Source: Dehalococcoidia bacterium (GTDB lineage Bacteria > Chloroflexota > Dehalococcoidia > Dehalococcoidales > JAUVZA01). From it: DNA of 64,000 nucleotides. The notes under the pieces are model-generated. The model saw nothing but the letters and a program-made list of their open reading frames with translations. It was not told the DNA's origin and searched no databases. Location: the NCBI GenBank assembly GCA_030602805.1, contig JAUVZA010000001.1:2426-66425 (forward strand), written 5' to 3'. The first letter of the stretch is position 1. Each line of letters begins with the position of its first letter. This document shows, piece after piece, positions 1 to 50,756 of the stretch. The position numbers and the translations under genes were made by a program.

Positions 1-142
1 GTTAAATAGATAAATCATCGCCGGGGGGCTCGGGAAATCAAGGTATGGCTCACCCCAAGTGGCATAATTCATCCCGTCCCGTGCGGTACCTTGACCGTAA
101 TCGGGGTCAGCCCCCTGCTAGTGAGGAAATATAATAAAGGGG

Positions 143-382
143 GTGAATTCAGTGGCGGCAAAGGCTTTTGTTCTAATTGAAACAGTGGTGGGTAGAAGTA
201 AGGAGGTGGTTTCTGCTCTTAAGCAACTAGAAGGGGTAAAATCGGTTGATACTGTAACTGGACCCTATGATGTTATTGCTACAATAGAAGGAGAAACCCT
301 CAACGATATCGGCGATTTAGTCACTGCTAAAATCCATCCTATCGCTGGCATTTCCAGGACGGTGACCTGTCTGGCAATATGA
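143..382 (+). CDS. Small stand-alone Lrp/AsnC-type ligand-binding domain protein
   Basis: 79-aa ORF. The pattern KAFVLIE...VTGPYDVIATIEGETLNDIGDLV is typical of AsnC/Lrp C-terminal (RAM) domains. A purine-rich RBS (aaaggggg) lies just upstream. Confidence 0.55.
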   Translation: MNSVAAKAFVLIETVVGRSKEVVSALKQLEGVKSVDTVTGPYDVIATIEGETLNDIGDLVTAKIHPIAGISRTVTCLAI

Positions 383-404
383 GCCACCCAAACCCCATTG
401 CCTT

Positions 405-1262
405 TTAGATTTGAGCTAGGGCTTCGAGCCTCGCCAATACTTCATCTATAGTTTGCTCATCAGTAGAAGCCCCGGCAGTTATACCTATATGGCACTGACC
501 TTGAAGCCAGGAGGGCTGAATTTCCTCTGCAGTTTCAACTAGATATGTTTTAGTAGCCACAGAGCATAACTCAACAAGATGATGGGTATTAGCACTGGTA
601 TGACCACCGATAACGAGCATCAGGTCCACTCTACTAGCTAGCTTGAGGGCTGCTGCTTGTCGTTGTCTAATATCATGACATATGGTATCAATAATGCGTA
701 GTTCAGAGTCTTTAGCCAAGGCAGAATCAATAAGCTTCTTTACAAATTCAGTAAAATGAGCTGGTACCTGAGTCGTCTGGGATAGAACACCTAAACGACG
801 AGGTAGATTGTCAAACCTAGCTATAAACCTCTCATCTAGCGTAGCCACTCCCTTACCCTTAGCCCAACCAAGAATACCCTTGACCTCAGGGTGGTCAACA
901 TCACCATATATAATAGTAAAAAAACCGGACTCAGCTAATCTCCGAGCCGCAACCTGGGCTCGGTGAACAAAGGGACAAGTAGTATTAATTATGTCAATAC
1001 GCCGAGCCCTAATCTCCTCCTCTAGTTGTGGGCTCACTCCATGAGAGCTAATAGCTATCGTGTCACCCCGTATATCATCAACACTCTTGGCTACCCTAAC
1101 CCCAATCTCGGCTAGTCTTTGTAGCACCGGTTGGTTATGCACCACAGCCCCCAATGTTTCCACCCCACCACGCTCGCGAGCAACCTTCTCCAGGATATTG
1201 ATGGCTCGCTTAACCCCAAAGCAAAACCCTATTCCAGCCGCTTTTTCAATCCTCAATGTCAT
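405..1262 (-). CDS. ispH: 4-hydroxy-3-methylbut-2-enyl diphosphate reductase
   Basis: 285 aa. N-terminal GFCFGVKRAI motif, plus later SHG and TICHD Cys/His contexts characteristic of IspH/LytB. Confidence 0.9.
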   Translation of the reverse strand: MTLRIEKAAGIGFCFGVKRAINILEKVARERGGVETLGAVVHNQPVLQRLAEIGVRVAKSVDDIRGDTIAISSHGVSPQLEEEIRARRIDIINTTCPFVHRAQVAARRLAESGFFTIIYGDVDHPEVKGILGWAKGKGVATLDERFIARFDNLPRRLGVLSQTTQVPAHFTEFVKKLIDSALAKDSELRIIDTICHDIRQRQAAALKLASRVDLMLVIGGHTSANTHHLVELCSVATKTYLVETAEEIQPSWLQGQCHIGITAGASTDEQTIDEVLARLEALAQI

Positions 1263-1902
1263 CTAATTTCCTTGCCCCGTAATCCCCACGATACTTTAGG
1301 GGGAGGAGTTCAGCTATATGCCCCATTATAGAATTAGTAAGTTCAGTAAGCTCCGCCTTAGTCAATCTACTACTAACTGGTGGCAGATAGAAGGGGTGAC
1401 CAATATTAACCGTTATCTGAGGGCGACGCAATAACCAGGTTACACCCCTAATCTTTTCTGTCCCAATAATGCCTACGGGCAGGATAGGAGCACCACTACG
1501 CATGGCTATTAGCGCTGGGCCGGAGAAGGCGGGTCGCAGCCGACCACTGCGGCTCCTCGTTCCTTCAGGGAACGTGACTAGAGCCAAGCCATCAGCGAGT
1601 ACCTGATATGCTTGGCGCAGTGCCTTTCTATCTAGTCGCCCTCGGTGCACTGAAAATGCACCAAAACTACCTATAAAGTAACCAATCACCCTAAAACGAA
1701 ATAACTCCTTTTTAGCCATAAATATCACTTTCCGGCTAAGGCTAACACCAAGTAAAGGCGGGTCAGCTAGACTAAGGTGATTGGCTACTATTAGCAGGGG
1801 GCCTTGGCTAGGGATATTCTCCCTGCCCTTGACCTGACAATGAGTCAAGAGTTTTAGTAGCACCCTTACTATTACTCTGGCGACATAATAGAACCAGGGC
1901 AT
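1246..1902 (-). CDS. plsC: 1-acyl-sn-glycerol-3-phosphate acyltransferase
   Basis: 218 aa. Acyltransferase motifs NHLSLADP (HX4D) and FPEGTRS. The stop overlaps the ispH start by 17 nt. Confidence 0.8.
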   Translation of the reverse strand: MPWFYYVARVIVRVLLKLLTHCQVKGRENIPSQGPLLIVANHLSLADPPLLGVSLSRKVIFMAKKELFRFRVIGYFIGSFGAFSVHRGRLDRKALRQAYQVLADGLALVTFPEGTRSRSGRLRPAFSGPALIAMRSGAPILPVGIIGTEKIRGVTWLLRRPQITVNIGHPFYLPPVSSRLTKAELTELTNSIMGHIAELLPLKYRGDYGARKLDDIED

Positions 1903-2161
1903 TATCCCACTCTCCCCAGATAAGAAATTGGTGCTTGATAATTATAGCCTACGGCTGGGGATAAAGCCAAACCTTGATTAGACTTGACTTTTATCCCATA
2001 ATACCCAAGGGGAAACATGAAAAGATTAAGCATTGGTAAAAGATGTGGAAAAACTACTACCCCAAATCAAAGTCTGGGAGATAAAACTAAGCAGCCGACT
2101 AAAACATTCTTCCCTGCCGGTAACGAAAGCCCTTCATCAGATTGAGGTTAATAAAATAATC

Positions 2162-2743
2162 TTAATCCTTTTCATTACTTGTCCCTATTATCTCCTTGAG
2201 AGCTGATGAGTAGGCTCTAAAGGTTTGAGAATCAAACAGCACGAATACTACTTCCCTGACAGAAGTAACGCTTTGGCGAAGAGAGGCAATAACTGTCCCG
2301 ATGGCCAGTCTTGATGCCTTAGCCACTGGATAGCCATAGGCGCCGGTGCTAATTGACGGGAAAGAAATACTAAATAATTGGTTCCCCATCGCCAGTTTTA
2401 AGCTCTCCTGATAGGCACTAGCCAACAGTTCAGGCTCTCCTTTATCGCCTCCATACCAGATAGGTCCAACAGTATGAATGACATGCCTTGCCTTAAGATT
2501 TCCACCGGTTGTCATTACTGCCTTACCTGTTGGCAGATGTCCTTGTCTGGCTACAATCTGCTTACACTCCTCTAAAATGGCAGGACCTCCTGTCCTGTGG
2601 ATTGCTCCATCCACTCCACCACTACCCATGAGGCTGGAATTGGCAGCATTAACTATGGCATCAGTATCCTGCTTAGTAATGTCCCCTTGAATTATGCGCA
2701 GCTTTGCTTGGTTAATAGTAACTTCCACAACTTGCTTCTCCAT
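2162..2743 (-). CDS. Macro-domain protein (ADP-ribose binding / O-acetyl-ADP-ribose deacetylase type)
   Basis: 193 aa. IVNAANSSLMGSGGVDGAIHRTGG and later ISTGAYGYP motifs are typical of YmdB-like macro domains. Confidence 0.85.
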   Translation of the reverse strand: MEKQVVEVTINQAKLRIIQGDITKQDTDAIVNAANSSLMGSGGVDGAIHRTGGPAILEECKQIVARQGHLPTGKAVMTTGGNLKARHVIHTVGPIWYGGDKGEPELLASAYQESLKLAMGNQLFSISFPSISTGAYGYPVAKASRLAIGTVIASLRQSVTSVREVVFVLFDSQTFRAYSSALKEIIGTSNEKD

Positions 2744-2861
2744 ATCCTCACCTCTATATTTCTCTACTGCGTCAAACTAACGACTATTCTTTCAGTAAGC
2801 AGGGTGGAAGGAACACTACTTACCCGCTCCAACCATGATTACACCGTATTTAGCTTCCGGC
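2726..2861. repeat. 136-bp direct repeat, copy A (5' leader plus first 6 codons of the macro-domain gene)
   Basis: Identical to 7478-7613 except for one position (c2816 vs t7568). Both boundaries were checked base by base. Confidence 0.95.
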
Positions 2862-2869
2862 AAGTAAGC

Positions 2870-3718
2870 TTAACCAAATAATTGCGTTGACATATCTTTA
2901 TGTAAAAGTCCTACCGCATCGGCACGGCATTGTCGGCAATGCGTCATTTGTTTAATAACTTTGGCACATTCATCCTGTAACCTCTTCCTCTCAGTAGGCG
3001 AAGGAGGACTAAGGTGAGTAAACTTGAAGAGAGGAATTAGAGGCATGATATTTTGCATGTAAACTCCAAGCTCTTTAATTTTTGTAGCCACTTCAATGAT
3101 ATGATTATCATTTATGGTAGGAATCATGACAGTGTTTACCTTGACAACTATTCCCTCTTTAACAGCCATCTTAATCCCCGCTAATTGATTATTGAGTAAC
3201 ACTTCCGCAGCTTCAACCCCTTCTAGCTTTTTACCCTGATAATAGACAACGGAATGGATTTTTGCTCCTATAGAGGGGTCAACGGTATTTAAGGTTACGG
3301 TCATAGTGGCTAGCCCTAATTGCTTTGCCGATTCCACTTTTTCTGGTAGCAAAAGTCCATTGGTGCTCATGCATTTATGTAGATAGGGAAACCTATCTTT
3401 TACTAGGCGAAACGTTTCAAAAGTTTCTTCATTAAATAGAGGGTCTCCTGGCCCGGCAATGCCTACTATCCTTATATTAGGAAATTTTTCAATTACTTCC
3501 CTAACTCTTCCCACCGCCTCTTGAGAGCTGATGACCTTGCTTGTCACACCAGGTCTACTCTCATTAACACAATCATATTCTCTACTGCAATAATTACATT
3601 GAATATTACACTTAGGAGCAACAGGCAGGTGAATCCTGCCCACGCGGTCGTGAGCTTGATCGCTGAAACACGGGTGCTGGCTGATAATATCGCTTGTCAC
3701 TAAGCTATCTAGCTTCAT
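2870..3718 (-). CDS. NifB-like radical SAM protein (radical SAM core only, no NifX-like extension)
   Basis: 282 aa. CNIQCNYCSREYDCVNESRPGV closely matches the NifB radical-SAM signature. Last gene of the nitrogenase-like cassette. Confidence 0.8.
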   Translation of the reverse strand: MKLDSLVTSDIISQHPCFSDQAHDRVGRIHLPVAPKCNIQCNYCSREYDCVNESRPGVTSKVISSQEAVGRVREVIEKFPNIRIVGIAGPGDPLFNEETFETFRLVKDRFPYLHKCMSTNGLLLPEKVESAKQLGLATMTVTLNTVDPSIGAKIHSVVYYQGKKLEGVEAAEVLLNNQLAGIKMAVKEGIVVKVNTVMIPTINDNHIIEVATKIKELGVYMQNIMPLIPLFKFTHLSPPSPTERKRLQDECAKVIKQMTHCRQCRADAVGLLHKDMSTQLFG

Positions 3719-3749
3719 TACACTCCCTCTATGGACGGCTCTACCTTAC

Positions 3750-4592
3750 CTATGCCTTCAGATGCCGCCGGTACAAAGCCTCCAGCTCAGATAGTTCCTC
3801 CAGCGGTGTCGGGATGACAGGAGAATCGTTGTTTATCACCTTTTCCGCCAACTCGCGGAATACCCCAGCCTCTGCCGACTGAGGAGAATGCTCCAGCACT
3901 GTTTGGCTCTCTACCTCACAGGCCTGAATCACCGGGCTGTGCGGGACAAAATGGACAAGCTTAGTTCCCAATCGCCCAGCGAAGTCGGAGAGAACCTCCT
4001 TCTCGAAACTATCCTGTCCGATACTGTTGCATATCACGCCAGCCAGCCCTGTTTCACCCCGCCGTGAGAGGCGGCGAATTGCTTTAGCAATGTTGTTAGC
4101 GGCATAAAGGCTCATAAAGCCTCCAGAGCAAATTAGGTAAATCTCCCTGGCATAGCCCTGACGAATTGGCTGGGCAAAGCCTCCGCAAACCACATCACCC
4201 AAAACATCGTAAACAACCACATCAACGCTATAGGTGTCGAAGGCCTTGAGGTCCCTAAGAATGTTGATTGCGGTCAGCACCCCCCGACCAGCACAGCCAA
4301 CCCCTGGCTCAGGTCCCCCCGATTCCACACAATAAACCCCCTGATGCCCCACAAAGACGATATCCTCAAGAGCGATGGCATATTCGTCACGCCCCATTCT
4401 CAGGTGCTCTCGATAGGTTTCGAGCACTGTTGGGATCAGCTGTCCCCCGGTCAGAGTCCTGGTGGAGTCTCTCTTGGGGTCGCAGCCTACCTGCATAACC
4501 TTCAAGACCCTTTGCTGCAGAGCAATACAAAGATTAGAGGCTATGGTGCTCTTGCCAATGCCCCCCTTGCCATATATTGCTATCTGTCTCAT
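3750..4592 (-). CDS. NifH-like ATPase / Fe protein of a nitrogenase-like enzyme
   Basis: 280 aa. P-loop [10 protein letters not shown]. Both 4Fe-4S Cys contexts are present ([11 protein letters not shown] and GDVVCGGF). Confidence 0.85.
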
Positions 4593-4595
4593 CCT

Positions 4596-5939
4596 TTACC
4601 ACCTCGCCTTGTATTCTCGCTGCCGTGACCGATATTTATCTCTCCAGTCGTTCTGGATGAACTCAATGATATTCAGCATGCCGGTGTAGCCGAAGTACTC
4701 ACGATTGATTATACGGAAACGTGTGGTGGGGGAAACCAGCAAAAAGACAAAGGGTATGTCCAGCTCCTCGACGGCGTGCTTTTCGATATTGCTGCCGAAG
4801 ACGATCTCCGGCTTGAGGTCAGCCAGCGCCACCTTCGACTGGTAGACATCAGCGCCATAGATCACCCGAGGGGCAAGGTTCAGCTCCTTAAGTTCCTTCT
4901 CCAAAACCCTTCTGGCTACCTCCTGGGAGGAGCGAAGACAGATGAGCTGGGGAACCATCTCCAGGTCCTCACTGATGAAGTGAACCAGGGGGATGCCTAC
5001 CGTAGCATCAGCAACGATTGCTACTGGCGCTCGATGCATAAAGAACTGCTCCAGACCCTTTCGCCGGCAGACCTCCACCACCATCTTCTCCCCCTCATTA
5101 GCTAACTTATCAGCCACCTCGCCGACACCGAACCTCTCCCCCAGCTCTCTTAGCCAGCGGCGGGTGTTGGTGAAGCCCACGGGCAAGGGGATATCCTGGC
5201 ATAGCTGCTCGACGCCAAACTCCGAAGCTAAATAACCGGCTGCCTTGTGACCACAGTCATGGCTCAACACCAGTGATGCCTCGCTGGCCGACACTCTTGC
5301 AAAATCGCTGAGGGCCGTCTGATGGGTGATGGTAGCCGTCACCTCAACCCCCATCCGTGAGAGCACGCCTTTCACCCACTCAAGGTCACCCATCCAGGTG
5401 GGATTGGCATTGGCGTAGGGAGCAATAAGGCACACCGATTTGGCTATCTTTTGCCCCCTGTCTACTATCAGCTTTTTCAACAGCACATCCAGGGCTATAT
5501 CGCTGCCATCGTATTGAGAGCCACGAAAGCCGGCGCACTGGATGGGCACCACATCGAAGTTCACCTGGCTACGCACATCCTCACAAACGGCAACGATGTC
5601 GTCGCCCACGATCTCGGGCCCGCAGGAACTCAACACAAAGACAATGGGAACATTGAATTCCTGGGCCTCCAGGATAGTGCGGGTAAGGAGTTCCTCGCCG
5701 CCATGGACAATCTCATTCTCACAGAGCTTGGTGCACAGGGTTAAGGTTTCTGTATAGTCAGCGTCCTGCCAGCCAAAGGCAGAGCTCACCAGCATATTGC
5801 AGCCCTGTGGTGCATAGGACAGGACGCAGCAGCCGCTAATGCCCAGAGCGGCCTGCGCGGCACCGTAGAGGGCACAGCGGAGATAAGGGTCGTGGCATTT
5901 CTCAGCCGTAGCTGTCACAAATTTACCGGTTGTACTCAT
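4596..5939 (-). CDS. Nitrogenase component-1 beta-like subunit (NifK/NifN-like)
   Basis: 447 aa. Cys residues in RCALYGA, YAPQGC and SSCGPEIVGDD contexts resemble NifK positions 70, 95 and 153. The start overlaps the upstream stop as ATGA. Confidence 0.7.
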   Translation of the reverse strand: MSTTGKFVTATAEKCHDPYLRCALYGAAQAALGISGCCVLSYAPQGCNMLVSSAFGWQDADYTETLTLCTKLCENEIVHGGEELLTRTILEAQEFNVPIVFVLSSCGPEIVGDDIVAVCEDVRSQVNFDVVPIQCAGFRGSQYDGSDIALDVLLKKLIVDRGQKIAKSVCLIAPYANANPTWMGDLEWVKGVLSRMGVEVTATITHQTALSDFARVSASEASLVLSHDCGHKAAGYLASEFGVEQLCQDIPLPVGFTNTRRWLRELGERFGVGEVADKLANEGEKMVVEVCRRKGLEQFFMHRAPVAIVADATVGIPLVHFISEDLEMVPQLICLRSSQEVARRVLEKELKELNLAPRVIYGADVYQSKVALADLKPEIVFGSNIEKHAVEELDIPFVFLLVSPTTRFRIINREYFGYTGMLNIIEFIQNDWRDKYRSRQREYKARW

Positions 5940-7348
5940 GACTGCCGATCTCCGTATAGAACCCGCCGAAATAGCTTCGAGCGAGGACGGCCAGCGTTGA
6001 CTACCGCCGACTCCACCAGCCTGGCTAGGTTAACAATGCCGGGATAACCATAATGGGGATAGCCGGTACGAGTGGTCAGGTTCACCTGAGGTATGCCGGG
6101 TTGTCTCATCGGGGTGCCAAAAAAGATGGCATTATTATATTCGGTGACCAGCTCTTCCAGTTGAAATTCCGTTTGCCAGGAGGAACGGAAGGTGCCCAAA
6201 GAAAAGATACCCTTGGTGAGCACCACCTCAGGGTTCTGCCCCGTCTCCAGAAGAAACTTTATGCTGGGCATCCTCTCCTTAATGGTGTAGGGGTGGATAT
6301 TGATAACCACCGGTCGCGCTCCGAACTCCTCAACCATTCTGGCTATGGAGAGGGCCCTGATCGGGCCAGGGAATTCGGCTACTTCAATAAGAGCTGTCTT
6401 GTCATTAAGATTCCTTCTCAGAGATTCGGCTTCCTCTTTGACCCCATCCGTCTCCTTCTGGATCACTTCTCTGGCCTTTTTCTCCAGACCCAGCGGCCTG
6501 GCTACTCCCATAATCCACTCCTCGGTTGCTCGGAGGCCGTAGGGCTGACCGGTACGGCTGTAGGCTATGCCGTATCTTTTCTGCATAAGGTCACCCAGCT
6601 TCTGCCCCCAGTCGTAGCACCACGAGGCGTTGAGCTCCACCTCGCGCGCCCGGCGAATCTCCTCCAGGGTGCAGCCACCACAGAGAACGGCATTGATGTC
6701 AACCCCGATGGCGTTTACCAACCTGATGATCTCATCCAGGTCTTCCCGCCACTCGGTGTAGGTAGGGCCCACCCTGGCACCGAGGATATTGATGGTTTTC
6801 TGCCTCTTCTGCCGCGGAGGCTCCATTAGATCCATGATAACCCGGAACGCATCCTCGAACCCGCTGCGGAAATCTCCACCGAAGCCCTCGCTGTGTATGG
6901 CTATCACCTTGGCGTTAACCGACTTCTCCGCTTCCTCAGCGATAGTTTCCACATCATCACCGATGATGCCTGAGCAGCAGCAGGAAAGGATAACAATGAG
7001 CTCAGGGTGATACCTTGCCTCCGCTTCCTTTACTGCCTCAACGAGCTTTCCCTCGCCACCATAGACAATATTGGTCTCACCCAGGGCAGTGCAACTGGTA
7101 GGCTCGAGGGGAACACCCCGGTATTCACAACTGGTCAACTTGTAGGCACTAGCCACGCCATAGGTGCAACCAACAGGGCCATGGATCACCGGTGCCATGT
7201 GACGAATACCATTAACCACCATAAAGGCCGTCCAGAACTTACAGGGGGGAGCATGAGAGGCCTGTAATTTGGGGATCATTTCTCCCTTTTCCACTTTCTC
7301 CAGCAACTGCTGTAGATTACCTCGAAAGGCGATATAGTCCTCGTCCAT
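5936..7348 (-). CDS. Nitrogenase component-1 alpha-like subunit (NifD/NifE-like)
   Basis: Cys residues in PPCKFW, HGPVGC, SCCCSGIIGDD and LNASWCYDW contexts. The preferred start is Met35 of the track ORF (7348), with GGAGG 8 nt upstream. The longest ORF would start at 7450. Confidence 0.7.
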   Translation of the reverse strand: MDEDYIAFRGNLQQLLEKVEKGEMIPKLQASHAPPCKFWTAFMVVNGIRHMAPVIHGPVGCTYGVASAYKLTSCEYRGVPLEPTSCTALGETNIVYGGEGKLVEAVKEAEARYHPELIVILSCCCSGIIGDDVETIAEEAEKSVNAKVIAIHSEGFGGDFRSGFEDAFRVIMDLMEPPRQKRQKTINILGARVGPTYTEWREDLDEIIRLVNAIGVDINAVLCGGCTLEEIRRAREVELNASWCYDWGQKLGDLMQKRYGIAYSRTGQPYGLRATEEWIMGVARPLGLEKKAREVIQKETDGVKEEAESLRRNLNDKTALIEVAEFPGPIRALSIARMVEEFGARPVVINIHPYTIKERMPSIKFLLETGQNPEVVLTKGIFSLGTFRSSWQTEFQLEELVTEYNNAIFFGTPMRQPGIPQVNLTTRTGYPHYGYPGIVNLARLVESAVVNAGRPRSKLFRRVLYGDRQS

Positions 7349-7477
7349 TCCTGTTGCCTCCCTTCCAGCTAAATCGAGTAGGATTCCAACTGACAGCCGG
7401 TTTACCAATGCTAGGCCGGCTGTACCATCTACAGTGACACAACATAGCATAACGCCCTGTCGGCTCTGGCGTCAACT

Positions 7478-7613
7478 CACAACTTGCTTCTCCATATCCT
7501 CACCTCTATATTTCTCTACTGCGTCAAACTAACGACTATTCTTTCAGTAAGCAGGGTGGAAGGAACATTACTTACCCGCTCCAACCATGATTACACCGTA
7601 TTTAGCTTCCGGC
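7478..7613. repeat. 136-bp direct repeat, copy B (upstream of the nitrogenase-like cassette)
   Basis: 135/136 identical to 2726-2861. On the minus strand it carries the stub ATG GAG AAG CAA GTT GTG AGT TGA, which is the first 6 macro-domain codons followed by a stop. Confidence 0.95.
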
Positions 7614-7849
7614 TCTTCTTTCTGACAAAGTGCTTTTATTCAGCAGGCGGCACCGGTCATCAACATAACTTTTTACTATTTCAGGGCTAGCTAACTCAAC
7701 ACGCCTATCGGACAAAAAGCTATCAATCCGAACTTTTCTAGCCTGCAGCTTCTCTTGGCGATATTGATAAGTTCACTGCCAGAAAAAGAGATAGACACCT
7801 TTAATACACTCCCTCCCCTAAATTTATAGGGCAGATGTTCCGCTTCTGC

Positions 7850-9784
7850 TTACTTTGCCTCTTCCTCCGCTTTCTTAAGTTCCTGGTAAGCTCTGACTAT
7901 CTCCTCAACGGAAGCTTCATCTTCCAATGTGGTGAGGTCACCGATAGTAGCGTCATTAGCCACTGCCTTTAGAACTCGTCGCATTATCTTGCCACTCCTC
8001 GTCTTGGGCAGCTTGGAAACGAAATATATCTCATCAGGAGTGGCTATTGGTCCTACCATGCGCCGCATGTGGTCAGTCAGCTCCTTCTTCAGGCTCACCG
8101 AGGGAGTGCTTCCCTCGTTAAGTATGGCAAAAACTACGATGCTCTCGCCCTTTATCGGGTCAGCTTTGCTCACTACTGCTGCCTCAGCCACCTGGGGATG
8201 GGAGACGGCAGCATCCTCTAGTTCAGCCGTGCCAATCCTGTGGCCGGCAATCTTGAGCACCTCATCAGCTCTCCCTAGAATCCAGAAGTAGCCATCTTTA
8301 TCCTTTATAGCATAGTCGCCTGTGTAGAACATGCCTGGAAATCTTGACCAATAAGCCTCTTTATACCGCTCCGGGTTGCCGTAGATGCCAAGAAGCATCC
8401 CTGGCCACGGTTTCCTTATCACCAAGAGTCCTCGCTCCTCAGGGTTGACCAGCTCACCACTTTCATTGACCACAGCTGCGTCTACTCCGGGCAGGGGGAA
8501 GGTTGCTGAGCCGGGCTTTAGTGGAACACATTCTATCCCGGGGGTGGGCGATATCATGATGCCACCGGTTTCGGTCTGCCACCAGGTATCAACTATAGGG
8601 CACCTCTCACCCCCTATATGCTGGTAATACCATAGCCAGGCTTCTGGGTTGATGGACTCACCGACACTCCCTAGTAGCTCCAGGCTGCTCAGGTCATGCC
8701 TCTTTGACCAATCCTCACCATATCTCATGAACATCCTGATAGCGGTGGGAGAGGTATAGAATATGGTAACCCCGTATTTCTCGATTATGTTCCACCACCG
8801 GTCAAGCGAGGGATAATCTGGTGCCCCTTCATAAAGGACTATAGCGGCGCCATGTGCCAGAGGGGCATAGACTATCGAACTATGTCCGGTAACCCAACCC
8901 ACGTCAGCAGTACACCAGTAGACCGATTCTTCTTTCAGGTCAAAGGCCCACTTGTAGGCACAGTAGTTCTGGACAAGGTAACCTCCAGTGCTATGAACTA
9001 TCCCCTTAGGCTTACCTGTGGTACCTGATGTGTAAAGTATGTAGAGCGGGTGGTTCGACTCTACCGGCACAGGTTCAACAAATGGCGCTGCCTTCTCGAG
9101 CAAGTCCTGAAGCCAGAAGTCCCTCGACTGTTTCATAGCCACAGGCTTGCCTGTTCTTCTTACTACAATAGTCTTTTCCACCGAAGGGCTCAGGGCAACA
9201 GCGTCGTCGGCTATCTCCTTGAGTGGCACGACCTTTCCTCTCCTGAATCCACCGTCGGCGGTTACCAGCAATTTGGCCTCTATGTCATTGATCCTATCGG
9301 CCAGAGCCTGAGCACTGAAACCTGAAAAAATGACGGTGTGTATGGCACCGAGCCTAGCACAGGCAAGCATAAATATAGGGAGCTCAGGTATCATAGGAAG
9401 GTACAGGGCTACCCTATCCCCTTTTGTCACCCCGGCACTTCTCAGGATGGAAGCAAACTTGTTGACCTCACTGTATAGCGTTGAATAGCTAAGGACTCTG
9501 ACGTCTCCTGGTTCACCTTCCCAATATATGGCTACCTTACTCTTCCGCCAAGTCTTGACATGACGATCGACACATATATATGATGCGTTCAGTTGTCCGC
9601 CTACAAACCACCTAGCGAAGGGCGGTTCCCATTCCAGCACCTTGCTCCAGGTTTTGAACCAATCCAGCTGGCGTGCCTGTTCAGCCCAGAATTCCTCTGG
9701 CTCTCTTATTGACCTCTCGTAGACATCGAAAAGCTTCTTCACAGGCCAATATCTCGACTCAAAAGGCAGCGATAAATGTGACAT
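7850..9784 (-). CDS. acs: Acetyl-CoA synthetase (acetate--CoA ligase, AMP-forming)
   Basis: 644 aa. YTSGTTGKPKG AMP-binding motif, full-length Acs-like N-terminus (FWAEQA...) and C-terminal PKTRSGKIMRR. Confidence 0.95.
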   Translation of the reverse strand: MSHLSLPFESRYWPVKKLFDVYERSIREPEEFWAEQARQLDWFKTWSKVLEWEPPFARWFVGGQLNASYICVDRHVKTWRKSKVAIYWEGEPGDVRVLSYSTLYSEVNKFASILRSAGVTKGDRVALYLPMIPELPIFMLACARLGAIHTVIFSGFSAQALADRINDIEAKLLVTADGGFRRGKVVPLKEIADDAVALSPSVEKTIVVRRTGKPVAMKQSRDFWLQDLLEKAAPFVEPVPVESNHPLYILYTSGTTGKPKGIVHSTGGYLVQNYCAYKWAFDLKEESVYWCTADVGWVTGHSSIVYAPLAHGAAIVLYEGAPDYPSLDRWWNIIEKYGVTIFYTSPTAIRMFMRYGEDWSKRHDLSSLELLGSVGESINPEAWLWYYQHIGGERCPIVDTWWQTETGGIMISPTPGIECVPLKPGSATFPLPGVDAAVVNESGELVNPEERGLLVIRKPWPGMLLGIYGNPERYKEAYWSRFPGMFYTGDYAIKDKDGYFWILGRADEVLKIAGHRIGTAELEDAAVSHPQVAEAAVVSKADPIKGESIVVFAILNEGSTPSVSLKKELTDHMRRMVGPIATPDEIYFVSKLPKTRSGKIMRRVLKAVANDATIGDLTTLEDEASVEEIVRAYQELKKAEEEAK

Positions 9785-9877
9785 ATCCTGATTCCTTTCT
9801 AACCTTGCTGTTCCTCTTCTTTCAGCAGGTCACTGAATACCTCAGTATGCTCAATTCTTGGATTGCCGCTAATAGGA

Positions 9878-10171
9878 CTACTTTCCCTCTAATAATTCAG
9901 CAATCTCTACCTTCCCCTTTTTGATATACTCCGCCTGCTTGGGGTCGAGAATTCCCAGTAGTGCCAGGAATTCCCCTACATGCTCCTTTTCATCATCCCG
10001 AGCATGGGCTAGCACTTTCTTAGCTCGCTCATCGTTAGTAGCGTCAATATGAGCTTGGTAGACAGCAACAGCATCCAGCTCGGCGGCTATATCTTGCATT
10101 ATAGCCCTCGCTAGCTCAGCGGCGTTCATCTTTCGGAGCACCAAAGTCCCAAAAGGATTACTGAAGTCCAT
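9878..10171 (-). CDS. Small ferritin-like protein of the encapsulated-ferritin (EncFtn) type
   Basis: 97 aa. AAELDAVAVYQAHIDAT...AHARDDEKEH aligns by eye with the EncFtn core (EELEAVDWY...HNRDEEKEH), including the Glu/Glu/His iron ligands. Confidence 0.65.
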   Translation of the reverse strand: MDFSNPFGTLVLRKMNAAELARAIMQDIAAELDAVAVYQAHIDATNDERAKKVLAHARDDEKEHVGEFLALLGILDPKQAEYIKKGKVEIAELLEGK

Positions 10172-10224
10172 TTTTCACCTCCTTTACTTTATTTTCTCAG
10201 GTTTGATTGCAGAGTATAAGTCCC

Positions 10225-10602
10225 TTAGCTAGATTTCCATAAACCGTGAATGCTGCAATACTCTCTGGCGGTTACTTTTTGCGGCTTTATGTCGAACTCT
10301 GCCTCCGGTTTTTCTCCTGGCTTAAGAAATATCCGGCAACTCTTGCCGTCAGCGATTATTTCTACCCACTCTATGTAGTGCTTTTCCTCCATTGGGTGGG
10401 GAATATCGCCAACCTTGACCTTTATTCCGTTATCTGTTGCCTCAATCACCGGTACATGCTTTTCCAGGCCAGCATCCGTTGCTTTCTCCTGGAGTAACTC
10501 CATTGGCTGCCCGCAACAGACTAGCTCCCCTTCCCCTGTATGCAGCACTTCGGTAATATTGCCGCAAACATTACACCTATAGACCTGCTTTTGTACTGTC
10601 AT
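10225..10602 (-). CDS. dfx: Desulfoferrodoxin (2Fe superoxide reductase)
   Basis: 125 aa. N-terminal desulforedoxin motif [12 protein letters not shown]...LVCCGQPM, followed by an SOR domain with HVPVIE and a C-terminal Cys/His. Confidence 0.9.
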
Positions 10603-10616
10603 GTTTTATACCTCCT

Positions 10617-11300
10617 TTATTCTATTTTTTCAAACTCATCCTTAGCTGCCCCACAGACAGGGCACACCCAGTCGTCTGGTATTTCCTCAAAGGGTGTTCC
10701 CGGTTTTATGCCGCCATCGGGGTCTCCCAGTTCAGGGTCGTAAATATAGCCACAAACGGTACATTTGTATTTTGGCACTTTGGCTACCTCCTTCTTCTCT
10801 TCAACATAGCTGGGAGCTGTCTTAGGCGTGGTGCCCCGTTTGACCTGATGGTAATAGGCATAGGTCATTGGTTCGCCTTCTTTAATAACATCTGCTCCCA
10901 CAAGCTCTCCAACAAAGATAGTATGAGTGCCCACATCCATCTCTTGAATTATCCTGGCTTCCAGATAAGCTAAGGTATTGTCAGTAACCACTGGAGCCTG
11001 GGTCTCACCTATTTTATAACTAATGCCCTCGAGTTTATCTATGTCCCTGCCTGACTTGAAGCCGAAGTGACCAATAAAAGAGAGAGGTGTATCCTGGGAA
11101 AGAATAGAAGCTGTAAAGACCTTGCTTTCCTTAATAAACTCGTGGGTTAGATTGTTTTTGTTGATGCTCACGGCAATAGTTGGCGGCTCAGAAGTTATTT
11201 GAAACACCGTATTAGCGATTTGCCCGTTGAGTCTATCTCCCTTTCTTGAGCTCACTACATACAAGCCGTAACCTAACTTATATAAAGCCTTAACATTCAT
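10617..11300 (-). CDS. Flavin-reductase domain fused to rubredoxin (high-molecular-weight rubredoxin type)
   Basis: C-terminal rubredoxin motif [13 protein letters not shown]...[16 protein letters not shown]-terminal flavin reductase-like domain. Start moved to ATG 11300, which has GGAGA 7 nt upstream; the track ORF extends to 11336. Confidence 0.85.
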
Positions 11301-11396
11301 TATTAGTCTCCAGGTCAAGCTTTTGAATTCCGGCAAAGGCAGCCTCTAGGTTCTTCTAGGTCCCGCTTCCTTTGAGTTCCATTAGTTTCTCCTTTC

Positions 11397-11627
11397 CTAC
11401 TTGGATTTCCTGATATAAACCTTGTATCCTCTGGCTTCTTCTTCAACACCTAAAAACTCATTTCCTGTGGCGTGGCACCAGGCGGGCATGTCCTGTTTTA
11501 TCCCTATATCATCAGCCGCCACTTCCAGAACCTCCCCCTGCCTCAGCTCTTTAATCTTCTCAGCGGTTTTAACAATCGGCATAGGACAATACAAGCCTAT
11601 GCAGTCTAAGCTTTGGTCGGCCTTCAT
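11397..11627 (-). CDS. TusA/SirA-like sulfurtransferase
   Basis: 76 aa with the signature LDCIGLYCPMPIVKT. Confidence 0.85.
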   Translation of the reverse strand: MKADQSLDCIGLYCPMPIVKTAEKIKELRQGEVLEVAADDIGIKQDMPAWCHATGNEFLGVEEEARGYKVYIRKSK

Positions 11628-11662
11628 CTTCTCCTCCTTGATTTGCCTCAGTGATTGTCTAA

Positions 11663-12151
11663 TTAGATAAAAAGGGTAACCTTTGATTCACGCGCCTCAC
11701 CCAAGAAATAACCGGCGCCGGCCAAACTATCAACCTCACTGCGGAAAGTATCCTTTTCTGGAGACAAGCCCATCACTCCGCAGGTAGTGGTGCAAGCAAC
11801 AAGTTTTACCCCCATTTGATGTGCCATAGTGATATACTCATCTATGGACGGCATATTAGTATCCTTCATCAGCCTCTTCATCATCCAGGTACCCAGGCCA
11901 AACATATTGCGCTTGGAAAGCTTCAGTCTCTTGGAGCCGCCCCGGTTGATAAGGTTCAGCATCTTCCTCATTATCCCTCGGCTTTTGATTGAGCCCTCAT
12001 TTCTCTTAATGATGTTTAGACCCCAGAAGGTGAAGAACACGCTCACCTCCATCCCCATAGCGGCACCAGTGATAGCCAGCATAAAAGCGGCTAAAGCCCG
12101 CTCTAGGTCCCCGCTTAAGACAGCTATGGTTAGCTTTTCCCTCTCTGCCAT
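11663..12151 (-). CDS. DsrE/DsrF-like family protein
   Basis: 162 aa. The pattern KLTIAVLSGDLERALAAF...VFFTFWGL is typical of the DsrE2-like family. It is paired with the TusA-like gene. Confidence 0.7.
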   Translation of the reverse strand: MAEREKLTIAVLSGDLERALAAFMLAITGAAMGMEVSVFFTFWGLNIIKRNEGSIKSRGIMRKMLNLINRGGSKRLKLSKRNMFGLGTWMMKRLMKDTNMPSIDEYITMAHQMGVKLVACTTTCGVMGLSPEKDTFRSEVDSLAGAGYFLGEARESKVTLFI

Positions 12152-12178
12152 TTAGTTCCTCCTCCTTTATAGACGATT

Positions 12179-12373
12179 TCAGCCCCGAATCTCAGCCCCG
12201 CAATGAGGGCATACCTCATTGCCCCGGAGTAATGGCTTTCGGCACTCAGGACAATAGAATACGGTTATTCCACAAGCCTGGCAGTAAGGTAGAGCAGATA
12301 TGACTAGCTCGTCTTCACAGTAGGGGCAAAAACACTTCCTCTGCTTTTCCTTTGGCTCTTCACTCCTTTTCAT
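12179..12373 (-). CDS. Double zinc-ribbon protein
   Basis: 64 aa with four CxxC pairs (CPYC, CQAC, CPEC, CPHC). Overlaps the upstream gene stop by 14 nt. Confidence 0.5.
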   Translation of the reverse strand: MKRSEEPKEKQRKCFCPYCEDELVISALPYCQACGITVFYCPECRKPLLRGNEVCPHCGAEIRG

Positions 12374-12776
12374 CTTTCCTCCTCTTTTTGCTTTTCACCT
12401 TTTTGCCCGGCTTCTTCAGGTAGTCATCAATAGCCTTATTCAGGGCTTGAGCGCCGAGGTTGGAGCAATGATACTTGTTTTTGGGCAGCCCTTCTAGCTC
12501 CTGAGCTACCAGCGCTGGGGTTATCTTTCTCGCCTTCTCCAGCGTCTTTCCCATAGCCATCTCGCTCACGATACTGGAGACGGCGATGGCGGCGCCGCAG
12601 CCGAAGGTCTTGAACTTGACATCGCTGAGTTGGTTATCGTCCACCTTGATGTAGAAGGTCATCATATCCCCACAAACAGGGTTTCCCACCTCACCGATAC
12701 CATCTGGGTTCTCAATCTCCCCCACATTGCGGGGGTTCATGAAGTGTTCCATCACTTTGTCGCTGTAAACGGGCAT
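12360..12776 (-). CDS. IscU/NifU N-terminal-type Fe-S cluster scaffold
   Basis: 138 aa. The motifs YSDKVMEHFMNPRNVG, GNPVCGD, FGCGAAIA and HCSNL give the three scaffold Cys. Lys-rich tail. Confidence 0.9.
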   Translation of the reverse strand: MPVYSDKVMEHFMNPRNVGEIENPDGIGEVGNPVCGDMMTFYIKVDDNQLSDVKFKTFGCGAAIAVSSIVSEMAMGKTLEKARKITPALVAQELEGLPKNKYHCSNLGAQALNKAIDDYLKKPGKKVKSKKRRKDEKE

Positions 12777-12777
12777 C

Positions 12778-13965
12778 TTACCTCCCTCCCCTCTCTCCTT
12801 TCAGGAATTTAGCATAAAGTGGCGACATCTGCCGCAGCTTATCAACGATGGGCGGCATCGCTTCTAAGACATAGTCCACATCCTCCTCAGTATTCTCCAG
12901 ACCGAGGCTGAAAAGTAGCGAGCCTTGTGCTATTTCAGGGGGAATCCCCATGGCGGTGAGAACATGGGATGCCTTGAGCGCCCTCGAGGTGCAGGCCGAG
13001 CCACTGGAGGCAGCGACACCTTTGCTAGAGAGGAGCATCAGCGTCGCCTCCCCCTCGATGAACTCGATACAGAAGCTGGCATTTCCGGGGAGGCGCTGGG
13101 TGGGATGTCCAGTGAGGGTCACATGCTCGTTCCGGGACAGTAGGCCCCCGATCAACCTGTTGCGCAGGGCAGAGAGATGCTCCATCCTGGACTCCATCTC
13201 CTCCTTGGCCAGCTCAGCAGCTTTTCCCAGACCGACAATCGCCGGCACATTCTCGGTCCCGGCTCTCCGTCCTCCCTCCTGCACTCCACCATCGAGGAAG
13301 GGAATGATGCGCACCCCCTTCTTGACCCAGAGGGCACCGATTCCTTTGGGCCCGTAAAGCTGATTACCAGCCAGGCTTAAAGCATCTACTGTCAATTCCT
13401 TTACATTCACCGGGATGGTACCAGTGGTGGCCACGGCATCAGTGTGAAAAATCGCCCCCGCTTCTTTCGCTAACCTCGCTATCTCCCTGATGGGCTGGAT
13501 GGTGCCCACTTCACCGTTGGCGTGCATCACCGAGACCAGAATGGTATCCTCCCTTATGTTTTTGGCTACGTCTTCGCGGTCCACCAACCCGCACCTATCC
13601 ACCGGCACCAGGGTAAGCTCGAAGCCCCATTTCTCCAGGGTTCTGGCAGAATGCAATACTGAGAAGTGCTCAATTGCGGAGATAACTATATGCTTGCCCT
13701 TAGATTGCTGAGCCATCGCCAACCCTTTAATAGCTAAGTTGTTCGACTCAGTGCCACTGGAGGTAAAGATAATTTCCTCTGGCTGGGCGCCGATGAGGTC
13801 CGCCACCCTGCCCCGGGCATCCTCTATAGCTTCCCTGGCATCATCTCCCCAACCGTGCAGAGATTGGGGATTGCCATAAGCATCCTTGAAATAGGGCAGT
13901 ATAGCCTCCAGCACTTCGGGCAATATAGGAGTGGTGGCAGCATGGTCCAAGTAAACCTTCCTCAT
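12778..13965 (-). CDS. Cysteine desulfurase (NifS/IscS class I)
   Basis: 395 aa. [10 protein letters not shown]-terminus, a PLP-Lys region and the active-site loop SSGSACTS. Directly upstream of the scaffold gene. Confidence 0.9.
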
Positions 13966-13993
13966 TTTCTGCCTCCAGGATTTCTAGTCTTAT

Positions 13994-14530
13994 TTAGCCA
14001 CCATCCAGAGATGGGTGTTCTTTCCTAACAAACCACCCTGCTGGGTCTTTGAGGTACTCGTAGTAGTCAAGCAGAATTAGATGATGTTCCCTTTCTTCGG
14101 CAGCCAAGGTCTCATAAAAGTCTCTCTCAGCATCATAGGTAGCATTTCCCCCCTGGCTTTTGTAGAAATCATTGGTCTTATTTTCCATGTCCATGGCTGT
14201 TTGTATGGCATCAACCTCGGTGGGTAGAGCCTTTATATTGGAGCCAATTTCCTCGGTTGCCCTGGCAAATATGGTTCTCAGTCTTTTGCCTCCATCAGGC
14301 TGAAAGTCAGTCGTGGGCCAAGCCTTTTTACTTCGTATAGCACTGTATATCTCCTCAAACTTCTGCCGGTGAGTGTCTTCTTCTGTGGCTAGTGACTCCA
14401 GCAGTTTCTTACCCAGCTCATTATTACTTTCCTGGCTAGCTTTCAGATAGTATTCCTTGCCATCAATTTCCATCTGGGTAGCAATTTGAAGTGCTTTTAG
14501 AGTTTTATTCTGTTCGTTTTCCATACTCAT
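13994..14530 (-). CDS. Rubrerythrin-family ferritin-like diiron protein (no rubredoxin domain)
   Basis: 178 aa with duplicated E...ExxH-type helices (EIDGKEYY...EEDTHRQ; MENKTNDFY...EEREHH). Confidence 0.75.
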   Translation of the reverse strand: MSMENEQNKTLKALQIATQMEIDGKEYYLKASQESNNELGKKLLESLATEEDTHRQKFEEIYSAIRSKKAWPTTDFQPDGGKRLRTIFARATEEIGSNIKALPTEVDAIQTAMDMENKTNDFYKSQGGNATYDAERDFYETLAAEEREHHLILLDYYEYLKDPAGWFVRKEHPSLDGG

Positions 14531-19296: not shown

Positions 19297-19372
19297 GGGG
19301 GGTTAGCTCAGTTGGTAGAGTGCTCGGTTCACATCCGAGAGGTCAGAGGTTCAAGTCCTCTACTCCCCACCA
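19297..19372 (+). tRNA. tRNA-Val (anticodon CAC), CCA encoded
   Basis: The cloverleaf was folded by hand. It has a 7-bp acceptor stem (one G-U), D arm GCTC/GAGT, anticodon stem CTCGG/CCGAG with loop TTCACAT, T arm AGAGG-TTCAAGT-CCTCT, discriminator A and CCA. Confidence 0.9.
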
Positions 19373-20980: not shown

Positions 20981-21640
20981 TCAGCGCTGAAATGACTTGT
21001 TCATCGACAACTCAAAATGACCATTAAGCTTAGGTGAGCGTGGTGGTAAGACAAATAGTTTTATACCTCTCTTCTGGCACTCCCTCTCAAAGGCATCCTG
21101 AAACTCTGAGCCTCCATCTACCGGAATAGCTTTGATAGGAAAGGGCATCCTGCTCTCCAGGGTATCCAAGAAGTGGGCAGCGGTGCTAGCATTAGCTCGA
21201 CTATGGACACTGACCACATCCCACCGTGATATGACATCACGGGCAGTAAAGTGCTTGAGAATTATTCCGGGCAGGGGTCTCACATCTAATGTATCCACCT
21301 CTATTATATCACCTGGCTTGTTGGCTAGGTATTCTTTGGGCTTTCTTATGGCATAAGGACGCTGCCACTGTCTTTTCCTCACCATGCAGCAGTATCACCA
21401 GCTTATCCTTTCCCCATCTGGGATATTGCTCTCTTAATTTAAGTACAGCCTGAACTAGCTCCGTAGAATGGGTAGGCTGTCTTACATGCTGGGGAGGGTG
21501 AGAACGATCCTCAAGGCTCTGCAGATGCCTGGGGTTATAGCGTCTCTTCCAGCGGTAGAAGGTCTGCGGGCTGATGCCAAAATAGCGGCAGGTAAGGCGA
21601 GCATTGTCCGCCTTAGGCGGATAGTGTCACTAATCTATCT
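20981..21640 (-). mobile_element. Degraded IS481-like transposase (rve/DDE integrase core with a frameshifted HTH part)
   Basis: The 134-aa ORF has integrase-core patterns (IIEVDTLDV..., PVDGGSEF). Upstream, in another frame, is a typical HTH region (CRYFGISPQTFYRWKRRY...REQYPRWGKDKL). Both the N- and C-termini are truncated. Confidence 0.7.
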
Positions 21641-46842: not shown

Positions 46843-46976
46843 TAAATCCTAATATCTAAATCCTAAATACTAAACAAATCCTAATTTTCAAATTTCAAAA
46901 CTGCTTAATCCTTTTGGATTTTGGTTATTTGATATTGTTTAGAGTTTAGAGATTAGTATTTAGTATTTTTTCACAA
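46843..46976. repeat. AT-rich palindromic MITE/IVS-like element, copy E1 (empty)
   Basis: The left arm AAATCCTAATATCTAAATCCTAAATACTAAACAAATCC and right arm TTGATATTGTTTAGAGTTTAGAGATTAGTATTTAGTATTT form an imperfect long inverted repeat. Confidence 0.6.
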
Positions 46977-47015
46977 AAGGACAGGTGCCCGATTTTATGC
47001 TTCCCGGACACCTGT
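46972..47015 (-). terminator. Intrinsic terminator downstream of the pilin genes
   Basis: On the minus strand the hairpin CAGGTGTCCGGG-loop-CGGGCACCTG is followed by TCCTTTTGTG. Confidence 0.55.
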
Positions 47016-47075
47016 TCTTCATACCTCCGCTTCCACCAAAACCCTGTTAAACCATCTTTATCATACTATGGATTA

Positions 47076-47543
47076 TTAATACCCGGTGCTTGCTTGGTCC
47101 ACCGTTCCAGAGGCATCAACAGTATAGGTGCCCTTGGTGGTGTCTGTAGCCAAATAGTTGACCAGTCCGGTTCCAAGACCATCGGCCATTATATCGTGCT
47201 GATAGAGTAGAAATCCATCCAGGTCACCAGCTGCGTATGCAACTCCATCGGGGTCATTTATCTTGTCAACAGTGATTGCCGAGGTCGCATCGGGGAAGGC
47301 ACCCATATCGCTAGTGGCTACGGCTATCGGATTGGGCAGTGAGCTCAACTGGTTATCAACCATCAGGGCAATCACGGCTGTCTGGACGTTGGCGAACTCA
47401 GTTTCTGCCGCCTCCTCCTCACCAGCGCCGATGAACCGTCCCACATTGGGGATGACCACGGCTGCCAGCACACCAAGGATGGCAACCACGATGAGCAACT
47501 CAATCAGGGTAAACCCCTTCTCCCCCCTTTTAGGTAATCTCAT
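47076..47543 (-). CDS. pilA: Type IV major pilin, copy 1
   Basis: 155 aa. Class III signal MRLPKRGEKG|FTLIELLIVVAILGVLAAVV. No Cys. Confidence 0.85.
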   Translation of the reverse strand: MRLPKRGEKGFTLIELLIVVAILGVLAAVVIPNVGRFIGAGEEEAAETEFANVQTAVIALMVDNQLSSLPNPIAVATSDMGAFPDATSAITVDKINDPDGVAYAAGDLDGFLLYQHDIMADGLGTGLVNYLATDTTKGTYTVDASGTVDQASTGY

Positions 47544-47600
47544 TTCCTAGCCTCCTTCTCACCTCACCCCATTTTATTGAGGTAAATATGCCACAGATTA

Positions 47601-48068
47601 TTAATACCCGGTGCTTACTTGGTCCACCGTTCCAAGTAAATCAACAGTATAGGTGCCCTTGGTGGTGTCTGTGGCCAAATAGTTGACCAGTCCGGTTCCA
47701 AGACCATCGGCCGTTATATCGTGCTGGTAGAGTATAAATCCATCCAGGTCACCAACTGCGTATGCAACTCCATCGGGGTCATTTAGCTTGTCAACAGTGA
47801 CTGCCGAGGTCGCATCGGGGAAGGCACCCATATCGCTAGTAGCTACAGCTACCGGATTGGGCAGTGAAGCCAGCTCGTTATCGGTCATCAGGGCAATCAC
47901 GGCTGTCTGGACGTTGCTGAACTCAGTGGCTGCCGCTTCCTCCTCACCGGCACCGATGAACCGCCCCACATTGGGGATGACCACGGCTGCCAGCACACCA
48001 AGGATGGCAACCACGATGAGCAGCTCAATCAGCGTAAACCCCTTCTCTCCTCTTTTTGGTAGTCTCAT
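47601..48068 (-). CDS. pilA: Type IV major pilin, copy 2 (tandem paralog)
   Basis: 155 aa, with the same leader. About 90% identical to copy 1. The duplicated unit spans 47071-47561 and 47596-48086. Confidence 0.85.
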   Translation of the reverse strand: MRLPKRGEKGFTLIELLIVVAILGVLAAVVIPNVGRFIGAGEEEAAATEFSNVQTAVIALMTDNELASLPNPVAVATSDMGAFPDATSAVTVDKLNDPDGVAYAVGDLDGFILYQHDITADGLGTGLVNYLATDTTKGTYTVDLLGTVDQVSTGY

Positions 48069-48150
48069 TTCCTAGCCTCCTTTCCTCCTTATTTTTGCTC
48101 CCTCCCTGAAAGAGAGAAAGCTAGCCCTTTCATTTAAGGCTACATATGAC

Positions 48151-48198
48151 AATATAAGGCATAGCGCTGCTGCTGGCAATCCTGCAAATGGGTGATTT
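48151..48198 (-). promoter_or_regulatory. Pilin promoter: the same 23-nt conserved box + TTGCCA-N17-TATATT
   Basis: The reverse complement of 48176-48198 is AAATCACCCATTTGCAGGATTGC. The -35 is at 48179-48174 and the -10 at 48156-48151. It lies about 80 nt upstream of ATG 48068. Confidence 0.55.
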
Positions 48199-48237
48199 TT
48201 GAGGGTGAAAGACTAGCTCTTTTAGGTGAGGGAGACT

Positions 48238-49501: not shown

Positions 49502-49502
49502 T

Positions 49503-50678: not shown

Positions 50679-50756
50679 TTTTTTACCACTATTAAACTAA
50701 AGCATCTTATCTCTATATGTCAAGTAGACTAAAAACGAGTTGTTTATTAAGGGGAT

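Follow-up and report, generated by a model that had tools for sequence, protein, structure and literature searches.

A four-gene nitrogenase-like cassette in a 64-kb window of Dehalococcoidia DNA (contig JAUVZA010000001.1; the window is the whole stretch analysed) is bracketed by direct repeats of 136 bp. The arrangement is probably the outcome of a recent insertion of the cassette that duplicated its target, an ordinary recombination scar rather than a regulatory element. The repeat, R, is the native 5′ region of the adjacent macro-domain gene (macro); it is single-copy in relatives and is no element of its own. Its downstream copy, R_A, stands at macro itself, its upstream copy, R_B, stands ahead of the cassette, and the unique inserted segment between them is termed U. 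A sequence-only reading of the locus had offered an insertion scar among its explanations, and that explanation gains support from cassette-free relatives that hold one R, from a macro N-terminus (MEKQ) that is native, from the presence of the cassette at other loci, and from the 99.3% identity of the two copies. Metagenomes from subsurface and sediment commonly contain the uncultured Dehalococcoidales/Chloroflexota clade to which the source organism belongs.

A repeat search and direct comparison both define R as positions 2726-2861 and 7478-7613, in direct orientation and identical at 135 of 136 positions, the sole mismatch being C2816 versus T7568. The borders are exact, with differing bases immediately outside the copies at either end (2725 C versus 7477 T; 2862 A versus 7614 T), and a search of the window that tolerated up to 3 mismatches found exactly 2 matches to a 32-nt core of R, where 0 are expected. 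R comprises 118 nt of leader, the ribosome-binding site (RBS) GAGGTGAGGA, and codons 1-6 of macro (MEKQVV). In R_A these codons continue into the rest of the gene. In R_B, at 7495-7472, the reading is ATG GAG AAG CAA GTT GTG AGT TGA, such that the six codons are followed by AGT TGA from the insert. The stop lies 121 nt before the D-like gene, which leaves no fusion or translational coupling of the duplicated codons with D. The base that distinguishes the copies appears to be derived in R_B, which has A (minus strand) at 7568 in place of a G found in R_A and apparently also in one relative (L164). The description of both copies in the sequence-only reading was accurate in these respects, including the leader, RBS, and codons in R_A, the immediate stop in R_B, and a distance of about 130 nt from R_B to the D-like gene, measured here as 129 nt. 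Its further claim that the 4.6-kb segment between the repeats is the cassette also holds, since 2862-7477 contains exactly four genes.

The origin of R is apparent from four informative relatives, contigs with ~92-93% DNA identity to the window: L162 (JGI Ga0209991_10002932), L163 (GCA_013282455.1, JABUBO010000612.1), L164 (from ENA), and L082. Each has one homologue of R, always at macro. L163 retains the gene order of the window, Flav/Rd-Dfx-EncFtn-Acs-macro-...-PlsC-IspH, and L162 has in common with it the stretch from the end of the acetyl-CoA synthetase gene (acs) through macro to PlsC-IspH. In both, nucleotide identity is ~92-95%, 40 nt separate acs from macro, and no nitrogenase-like genes lie between. 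An expectation set out in the sequence-only reading, that relatives would have a single leader copy and no cassette at macro, is therefore borne out by two loci with the same flanking genes. L164 aligns with window positions 2857-2042, covering nearly all of R and running on into macro, and its contig begins 50 nt further upstream. L082 aligns from 2799; the proximal ~75-100 nt of R are common to it and the window, and its upstream neighbor is different and divergent. When the 50 nt upstream of the L164 leader and the upstream region of L082 were compared with both window flanks, alignment scores were no better than those of shuffled sequences. A macro-protein search of GTDB species representatives was uninformative for the junctions, with a best match only 76-77% identical and an upstream gene order that is not conserved.

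Conservation across the family points the same way. Leader read-through protein predictions (P0003, P0008, P0034, and P0258) match the translation of R. The N-terminus of the macro family is likewise conserved as MEKQ..EV.INQ.KL; this N-terminus being native to the family, the six codons in R_B are a derived fragment. R_A and R_B, at 99.3% identity, are far more alike than R is to its orthologues (~95% to L163 over the common 66 nt, ~83% to L164), which makes the duplication younger than the splits from L163 and L164 unless gene conversion has intervened. These values fit the recent event proposed in the sequence-only reading, and it is from them that we infer recency.

The cassette itself is found elsewhere as a block with tight borders. 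Matches to Pfam, NCBIfam, and PDB sequences identify NifH-like, D-like, K-like (Oxidored_nitro), and NifB-like radical SAM proteins in one cluster, and the D-K-H-B block recurs in four other contexts on other Chloroflexota contigs. It follows a DsbA-like gene in L165, a contig that includes no more than the start of the block; it lies between a polyprenyl synthase gene and a mutator-type transposase gene in L166-168, between an MFS transporter gene and ahpC in L169-171, and between an alcohol dehydrogenase gene and acyl-CoA dehydrogenase genes in L172-173. Three of the D-like proteins (P0126, P0133, and P0139) are 83-86% identical to that of the window, and the L172 protein is 87% identical by global alignment. 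Nucleotide homology among cassettes is limited to the interval from the RBS of D through the stop codon of B (for L172, 7369-2867 at 79%). No flanking direct repeats were found around the related cassettes in L165, L166, L169, or L172. GC content at third codon positions (GC3) is 0.58-0.67 in D, K, and H, against a mean of 0.52 (sd 0.08) for window open reading frames (ORFs) and 0.37-0.43 for macro, plsC, and ispH. Such values are compatible with a foreign origin of D, K, and H and fit an insertion, though they are not strong evidence for it.

The NifB-like gene stands somewhat apart from the other three. Its GC3 is 0.37, versus 0.58-0.67 for D, K, and H, and its product has an identity of only 44-45% with its L169 and L166 counterparts, against 77-84% for D, K, and H; with the L172 B protein the identity is 75%. 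The cassette therefore looks mosaic, with a B gene that has its own history. As a separate observation, close relatives of D, K, or B (in 90%-identity clusters) come from contigs of 4,253-4,557 nt in other assemblies (P0123, 4,282 nt; P0243, 4,253 nt; P0303, 4,557 nt; P0305, 4,479 nt), approximately the length of the cassette, and those assemblies may also break at cassette ends. A further such protein, P0121, is from a contig of 1,707 nt.

Support for the junctions comes from an assembly independent of the NCBI metagenome-assembled contig (66,693 nt) from which the window was taken. In Logan (run SRR14872671, unitigs at k=31), contig L001 (4,676 nt) corresponds to window positions 2832-7507 at 100% identity, with no mismatch, and consists of U plus exactly 30 nt (k-1) of R on each end. 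A de Bruijn graph yields such a contig when U is flanked on both sides by sequence with a second continuation. Because L001 ends in R on both sides, both U/R junctions are present in the reads. With respect to an assembly artefact, a concern raised in the sequence-only reading, the Logan contig establishes that R adjoins the insert at either end in the reads and leaves an integrated copy unseparated from a circle plus an empty site.

In the mechanism proposed, the 4.6-kb D-K-H-B unit would have entered the acs-macro interval, oriented like both of these genes, with 129 nt ahead of D and 8 nt behind the stop codon of the NifB-like gene, and the insertion would have duplicated 136 bp of target. 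R_A would still serve the intact macro, and R_B, as the upstream by-product, would carry the dead-end start MEKQVVS*. The route ranked first, at a little less than an even chance overall, is a Campbell-type event in which a circle of U plus one R recombined with the chromosomal R. Direct repeats of >100 bp around an insert are the standard outcome of a single crossover between a chromosome and a circle that carries homology to it. R is single-copy at the same locus in the relatives without the insert (L162, L163, L164, and L082), and the repeats, at 136 bp and 135/136 identity, are long and similar enough for homologous recombination. For this route, U must already have lain next to R, either at some earlier stage or in a donor belonging to the same population. 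Somewhat less favored, although still a serious candidate, is one-step illegitimate capture of a linear fragment with 136-bp target duplication.

Comparison with Campbell-type integrants, such as those of suicide plasmids and some integrated plasmids, reveals two direct copies of an otherwise single-copy sequence in both, here with a repeat long enough for RecA and with predicted reversibility. The insert differs in having no replicon or vector functions, and what homology there is amounts to a very small part of a leader that belongs to the recipient itself. In RecA-dependent recombination, a measurable rate of exchange is to be expected between 136-bp repeats at a spacing of 4.6 kb, and recombination of R_A with R_B should delete the cassette and restore a single R. 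The single crossover suggested in the sequence-only reading is plausible on these grounds and stops short of demonstration, as the collections searched returned no circular form, plasmid, or phage with the cassette.

That absence is among several observations that weigh against an insertion of this kind. A scan of plasmid and phage collections and of viral contigs (with the conserved R core) gave no carrier, only motif-level nifH/nifB matches in plasmids and phages or nothing. Neither the genes nor the ends of the insert include a recombinase, a replication gene, or terminal inverted repeats, and both U/R junctions are blunt, with no microhomology and no mechanistic signature. The k=31 graph is the same for an integrated acs-R-U-R-macro arrangement and for an R-U circle with an empty site, and cannot separate the two. 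Gene conversion could hold old repeats identical, such that recency is unproven. The 236-nt spacer between acs and R_B and its 35-codon ORF have no homologue in any fetched locus, and among the relatives compared none has Acs, this spacer, a single R, and then macro. Nor do L162 and L163 count as true empty sites, since only 49 nt of the leader survive in them, fused to an acs end that is itself shortened.

The nature of this fusion can be read from the alignment of L163 (7930-8010) and L162 (240-320) with window positions 7850-7870 and 2762-2800. The junction has ...AAAGCGGA joined directly to AGAATAGTCG, with GAAGA-type microhomology, and the acs stop codon falls inside the former leader. 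Acs proteins of 643-644 aa that end in AEETE, AEETK, or AEEEAK (the last being the form in the window) are widespread, and the 641-aa form ending in ...KKAEE is restricted to a tight subgroup. As the longer C-terminus is the widespread one, the acs-macro fusion in L162 and L163 is a separate, derived deletion.

Among the alternatives to insertion, an assembly ambiguity is unlikely. Under it, the chromosome would have acs-R-macro but lack the cassette, R-U would exist as a second molecule, circular or tandemly repeated, and the contig would thread the two together through the common repeat. The source is a metagenome-assembled contig, the k=31 graph would be identical for both states, and exact copies of Acs, EncFtn, macro, PlsC, and IspH were recovered from NCBI only, all of which would suit this explanation; D, K, B, Dfx, and IscS are also in Logan, as is the NifH-like protein on a Logan contig, and the NCBI-only flanking proteins may reflect strain variation in the flanks. 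The one base by which the copies differ, however, sits 45 nt and 90 nt from the repeat ends, and assemblers run at k of 99-141 can link each copy to its own flanks. Nor would a circle of 4.75 kb without replication or mobility genes be likely to persist. The R-U junctions would be real under this explanation too, and the recombination event at the macro leader would still have happened. A site-specific integrative element is less probable again. In that case R_A and R_B would be the attL and attR of a non-autonomous island, resembling a cis-mobilizable element (CIME) or an ssrA island, that carries a copy of the 5′ end of its target gene and depends on a recombinase in trans. Direct repeats derived from a target-gene end do flank an accessory module here, the cassette does occur at several loci, the L172 contig has an integrase gene, and a mutator-type transposase gene adjoins the cassette in L166. 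No recombinase is found in or beside the insert, however; within window positions 1-36.8 kb the nearest candidate, an rve fragment below threshold, lies at a distance of 13.5 kb. The cassettes elsewhere have neither flanking repeats nor common non-coding ends, and att sites do not typically take the form of 136 bp of identity at the 5′ end of a protein-coding gene. Islands targeted to ssrA are reportedly a feature of Dehalococcoides genomes. Such islands either encode or require a site-specific recombinase; their target is the 3′ end of tmRNA, and their repeats are ~20 bp long. The present locus resembles them in host class, and both them and CIMEs in placing accessory modules between direct repeats that duplicate a target-gene end, and it differs in the missing recombinase, in the 5′ end of a protein-coding gene as target, and in the 136-bp repeat. 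With blunt junctions and no recombinase, replication gene, or inverted repeats, a transposon or a classical integrative island is unlikely. A transposon or insertion sequence (IS) target-site duplication, which would likewise place target sequence on both sides, was rejected on similar grounds: there are no inverted repeats in window positions 1-12000 and no transposase domain in the insert, and R is 136 bp rather than 2-15 bp.

About as improbable as a site-specific integrative element is adaptive capture of a promoter or leader, by which R would be a functional leader copied before the cassette to place it under co-regulation with macro, or, in a wider version, a reusable leader. R_B does put a strong RBS and a start upstream of the cassette, a proximal block of ~52 nt in the leader is conserved among the relatives, and no terminator-like site was found on the minus strand between acs, the cassette, and macro, which makes read-through possible; one such site lies downstream of macro at 2079-2060. 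A promoter scan, on the other hand, identified no promoter-like site inside R. The scan did identify TTGACG-18-TATGCT, starting 2 nt inside the insert, and inspection by eye likewise picks out promoter-like hexamers ahead of D in related cassettes. With 8 promoter-like consensus sites in the scanned region against 5.8 expected, this site is a weak consensus match only. The cassette probably has its own promoter, for which TTGACG-18-TATGCT is the candidate, and R_B is probably a passive by-product. The proposal that the macro promoter and leader were recruited to drive the cassette is thus unsupported, the promoter-like site lying at the first bases of the insert itself, and the duplicated codons end well short of D.

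The idea of a reusable regulatory leader or a repetitive extragenic palindromic (REP) element fares no better. Rfam was searched over the whole window at gathering thresholds and over both repeat regions at E up to 10; only the tRNA at 19297-19369 passed, and nothing matched R. The folding z-score of R is +1.46, less stable than shuffled sequence, and that of R_B with the D leader is +1.13. A hairpin that the sequence-only reading had seen in the unit, GTAAGTAG...CTGCTTAC, is outside the predicted structure of R, and its arms are not conserved in L164 or L082. A dispersed repeat, whether REP or a miniature inverted-repeat transposable element (MITE), or a generic leader would be expected in many copies before unrelated genes; R occurs 2 times in 64 kb and once per related locus in the data sampled, only ever at macro in the relatives. 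A 6-mer, TGACGC, common to the interior of R (AGTTTGACGCAG) and the start of the insert (AGTTGACGCCAG) was set aside, with ~0.5 such matches expected by chance on our own estimate.

All genes of the repeat and cassette region are on the minus strand, in the order acs, a 236-nt spacer, R_B, a 129-nt leader, the D-like, K-like, NifH-like, and NifB-like genes, 8 nt, R_A/macro, plsC, and ispH (Table 1). The start of the D-like gene was taken as the ATG at 7348, as in homologues of 467-470 aa, and a longer ORF from 7450 was discarded. The ORF in the spacer runs from 7798 to 7694 on the minus strand (VSISFSGSELINIAKRS...), with GGGGAGGGAG just ahead of it.

Table 1. Coordinates of the repeats, the cassette, and adjoining features in the 64-kb window.
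Feature	Position	Strand	Description
Macro-domain (O-acetyl-ADP-ribose deacetylase) gene, macro	2162..2743	-	intact despite the probable insertion
Repeat copy A (R_A)	2726..2861	-	native 118-nt leader, RBS, and macro codons 1-6, continuous with the rest of the gene
Unique inserted segment (U)	2862..7477	-	4,616 bp: 108 nt without homologue, D-K-H-B operon, 5 nt
NifB-like radical SAM gene	2870..3718	-	282 aa, core domain only; TIGR01290 score 348 versus cut-off 343.65
NifH-like ATPase/reductase gene	3750..4592	-	280 aa
NifK/NifN-like gene	4596..5939	-	447 aa
NifD/NifE-like gene	5936..7348	-	470 aa, nitrogenase-like component 1 subunit
Promoter-like site TTGACG-18-TATGCT	7446..7475	-	starts 2 nt inside the insert; 9/12 consensus positions
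Mini-ORF MEKQVVS*	7472..7495	-	duplication product: macro start and six codons, then AGT TGA from the insert
Repeat copy B (R_B)	7478..7613	-	derived duplicate of macro leader and start, 129 nt upstream of the D-like gene
Spacer, acs stop codon to R_B	7614..7849	-	236 nt; pre-insertion intergenic DNA or arrival with the insert
Acetyl-CoA synthetase gene, acs	7850..9784	-	upstream neighbor; C-terminus ...KKAEEEAK, ancestral type

Other rearrangements are visible around macro. The window does not have 1,871 nt (pfkB and deoC) that are present between macro and plsC in L162, L163, and L164. The junction of this deletion, between 2041 and 2042, is blunt and without microhomology, and its remnants are a stub of the PfkB C-terminus (ORF 2033-2206, plus strand) and the first 25 nt of deoC. 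A macro protein from marine sediment, P0259 (GAI15650.1), has its first ten codons replaced and starts with MLFFATVAGGFYT followed by NQAKL; the substituted part matches the antisense strand of deoC in L162, L163, and L164 (about 2597-2640 in L162). The P0259 junction, at approximately codon 10 of macro, is of a kind that a tandem duplication would create, and it suggests that the 5′ end of macro is a hot spot for rearrangement in the clade.

Farther out on the acs side, genes for TusA-like, DsrE-like, IscU/NifU-N, cysteine desulfurase, and rubrerythrin proteins (11397-14530) lie upstream of the Flav-Dfx-EncFtn-acs block. Rubrerythrin directly precedes the flavin reductase gene in L163, unlike in the window, and this side of the locus also varies between relatives. 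The tRNA gene is located ~1.6 kb from the sub-threshold integrase-core (rve) fragment (20981-21385; 31.7 bits versus a cut-off of 32.6), and the region, at a distance of 13.5 kb from the repeats, may represent a decayed IS or an island border. At 46844-50911, two tandem paralogues of 155 aa (47076-47543 and 47601-48068), which have a 300-nt repeat in common at 92% identity, are surrounded by three to four occurrences of AT-rich repeat blocks (AAATCCTAAATCC...).

The composition of the cassette places it near a group of known systems. Group IV nitrogenase-like (NFL) systems with a NifB homologue include NfaBHDK and MarBHDK (Chem Rev 2026, PMC13474568). The cassette contains the same four components, NifB-like radical SAM, NifH-like, D-like, and K-like, and differs from those systems in its order of D-K-H-B rather than B-H-D-K. 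Its D-like protein is only distantly related to solved chains, with best E values of 1e-31 to NifE/NifEN-type chains and 1.9e-29 to 9fmg_A and 9d9u_A, which are deposited only as 'Nitrogenase'. Neither what Group IV nitrogenase-like systems do nor how they have spread is settled (PMC13474568).

A wider reading bears on that spread, if rather speculatively. Without carrying mobility genes itself, the D-K-H-B operon might pass between genomes of Dehalococcoidales and other Chloroflexota as one discrete unit, in the form of a small circle that integrates via short homology. Leads toward this idea are the five contexts, the tight operon borders, the separate history of the NifB-like gene, and the cassette-length contigs (4.25-4.56 kb). 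The Logan cassette, too, assembled cleanly, with no immediately adjoining flanking protein recovered as an exact match. If travel as a circle were true, R-U-R would be a reversible integration caught in the act, coexisting with cassette-free strains.

The more modest conclusion, a probable insertion with duplication of the macro leader, has consequences of its own. Mechanistically it adds one more instance to a familiar class of recombination scar and is otherwise ordinary; its value would lie in being a dated, sequence-level case of an operon-sized nitrogenase-like cassette entering a Dehalococcoidales genome. If the cassette arrived by insertion, its present neighbors say nothing about its function. 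The adjoining acs, the oxidative-stress genes, and the further Fe-S assembly and sulfur-carrier genes would be accidental company and no guide to the substrate of the nitrogenase-like enzyme. From the 136-bp repeats one would expect the cassette to be gained and lost among members of a population, which would amount to a natural experiment.

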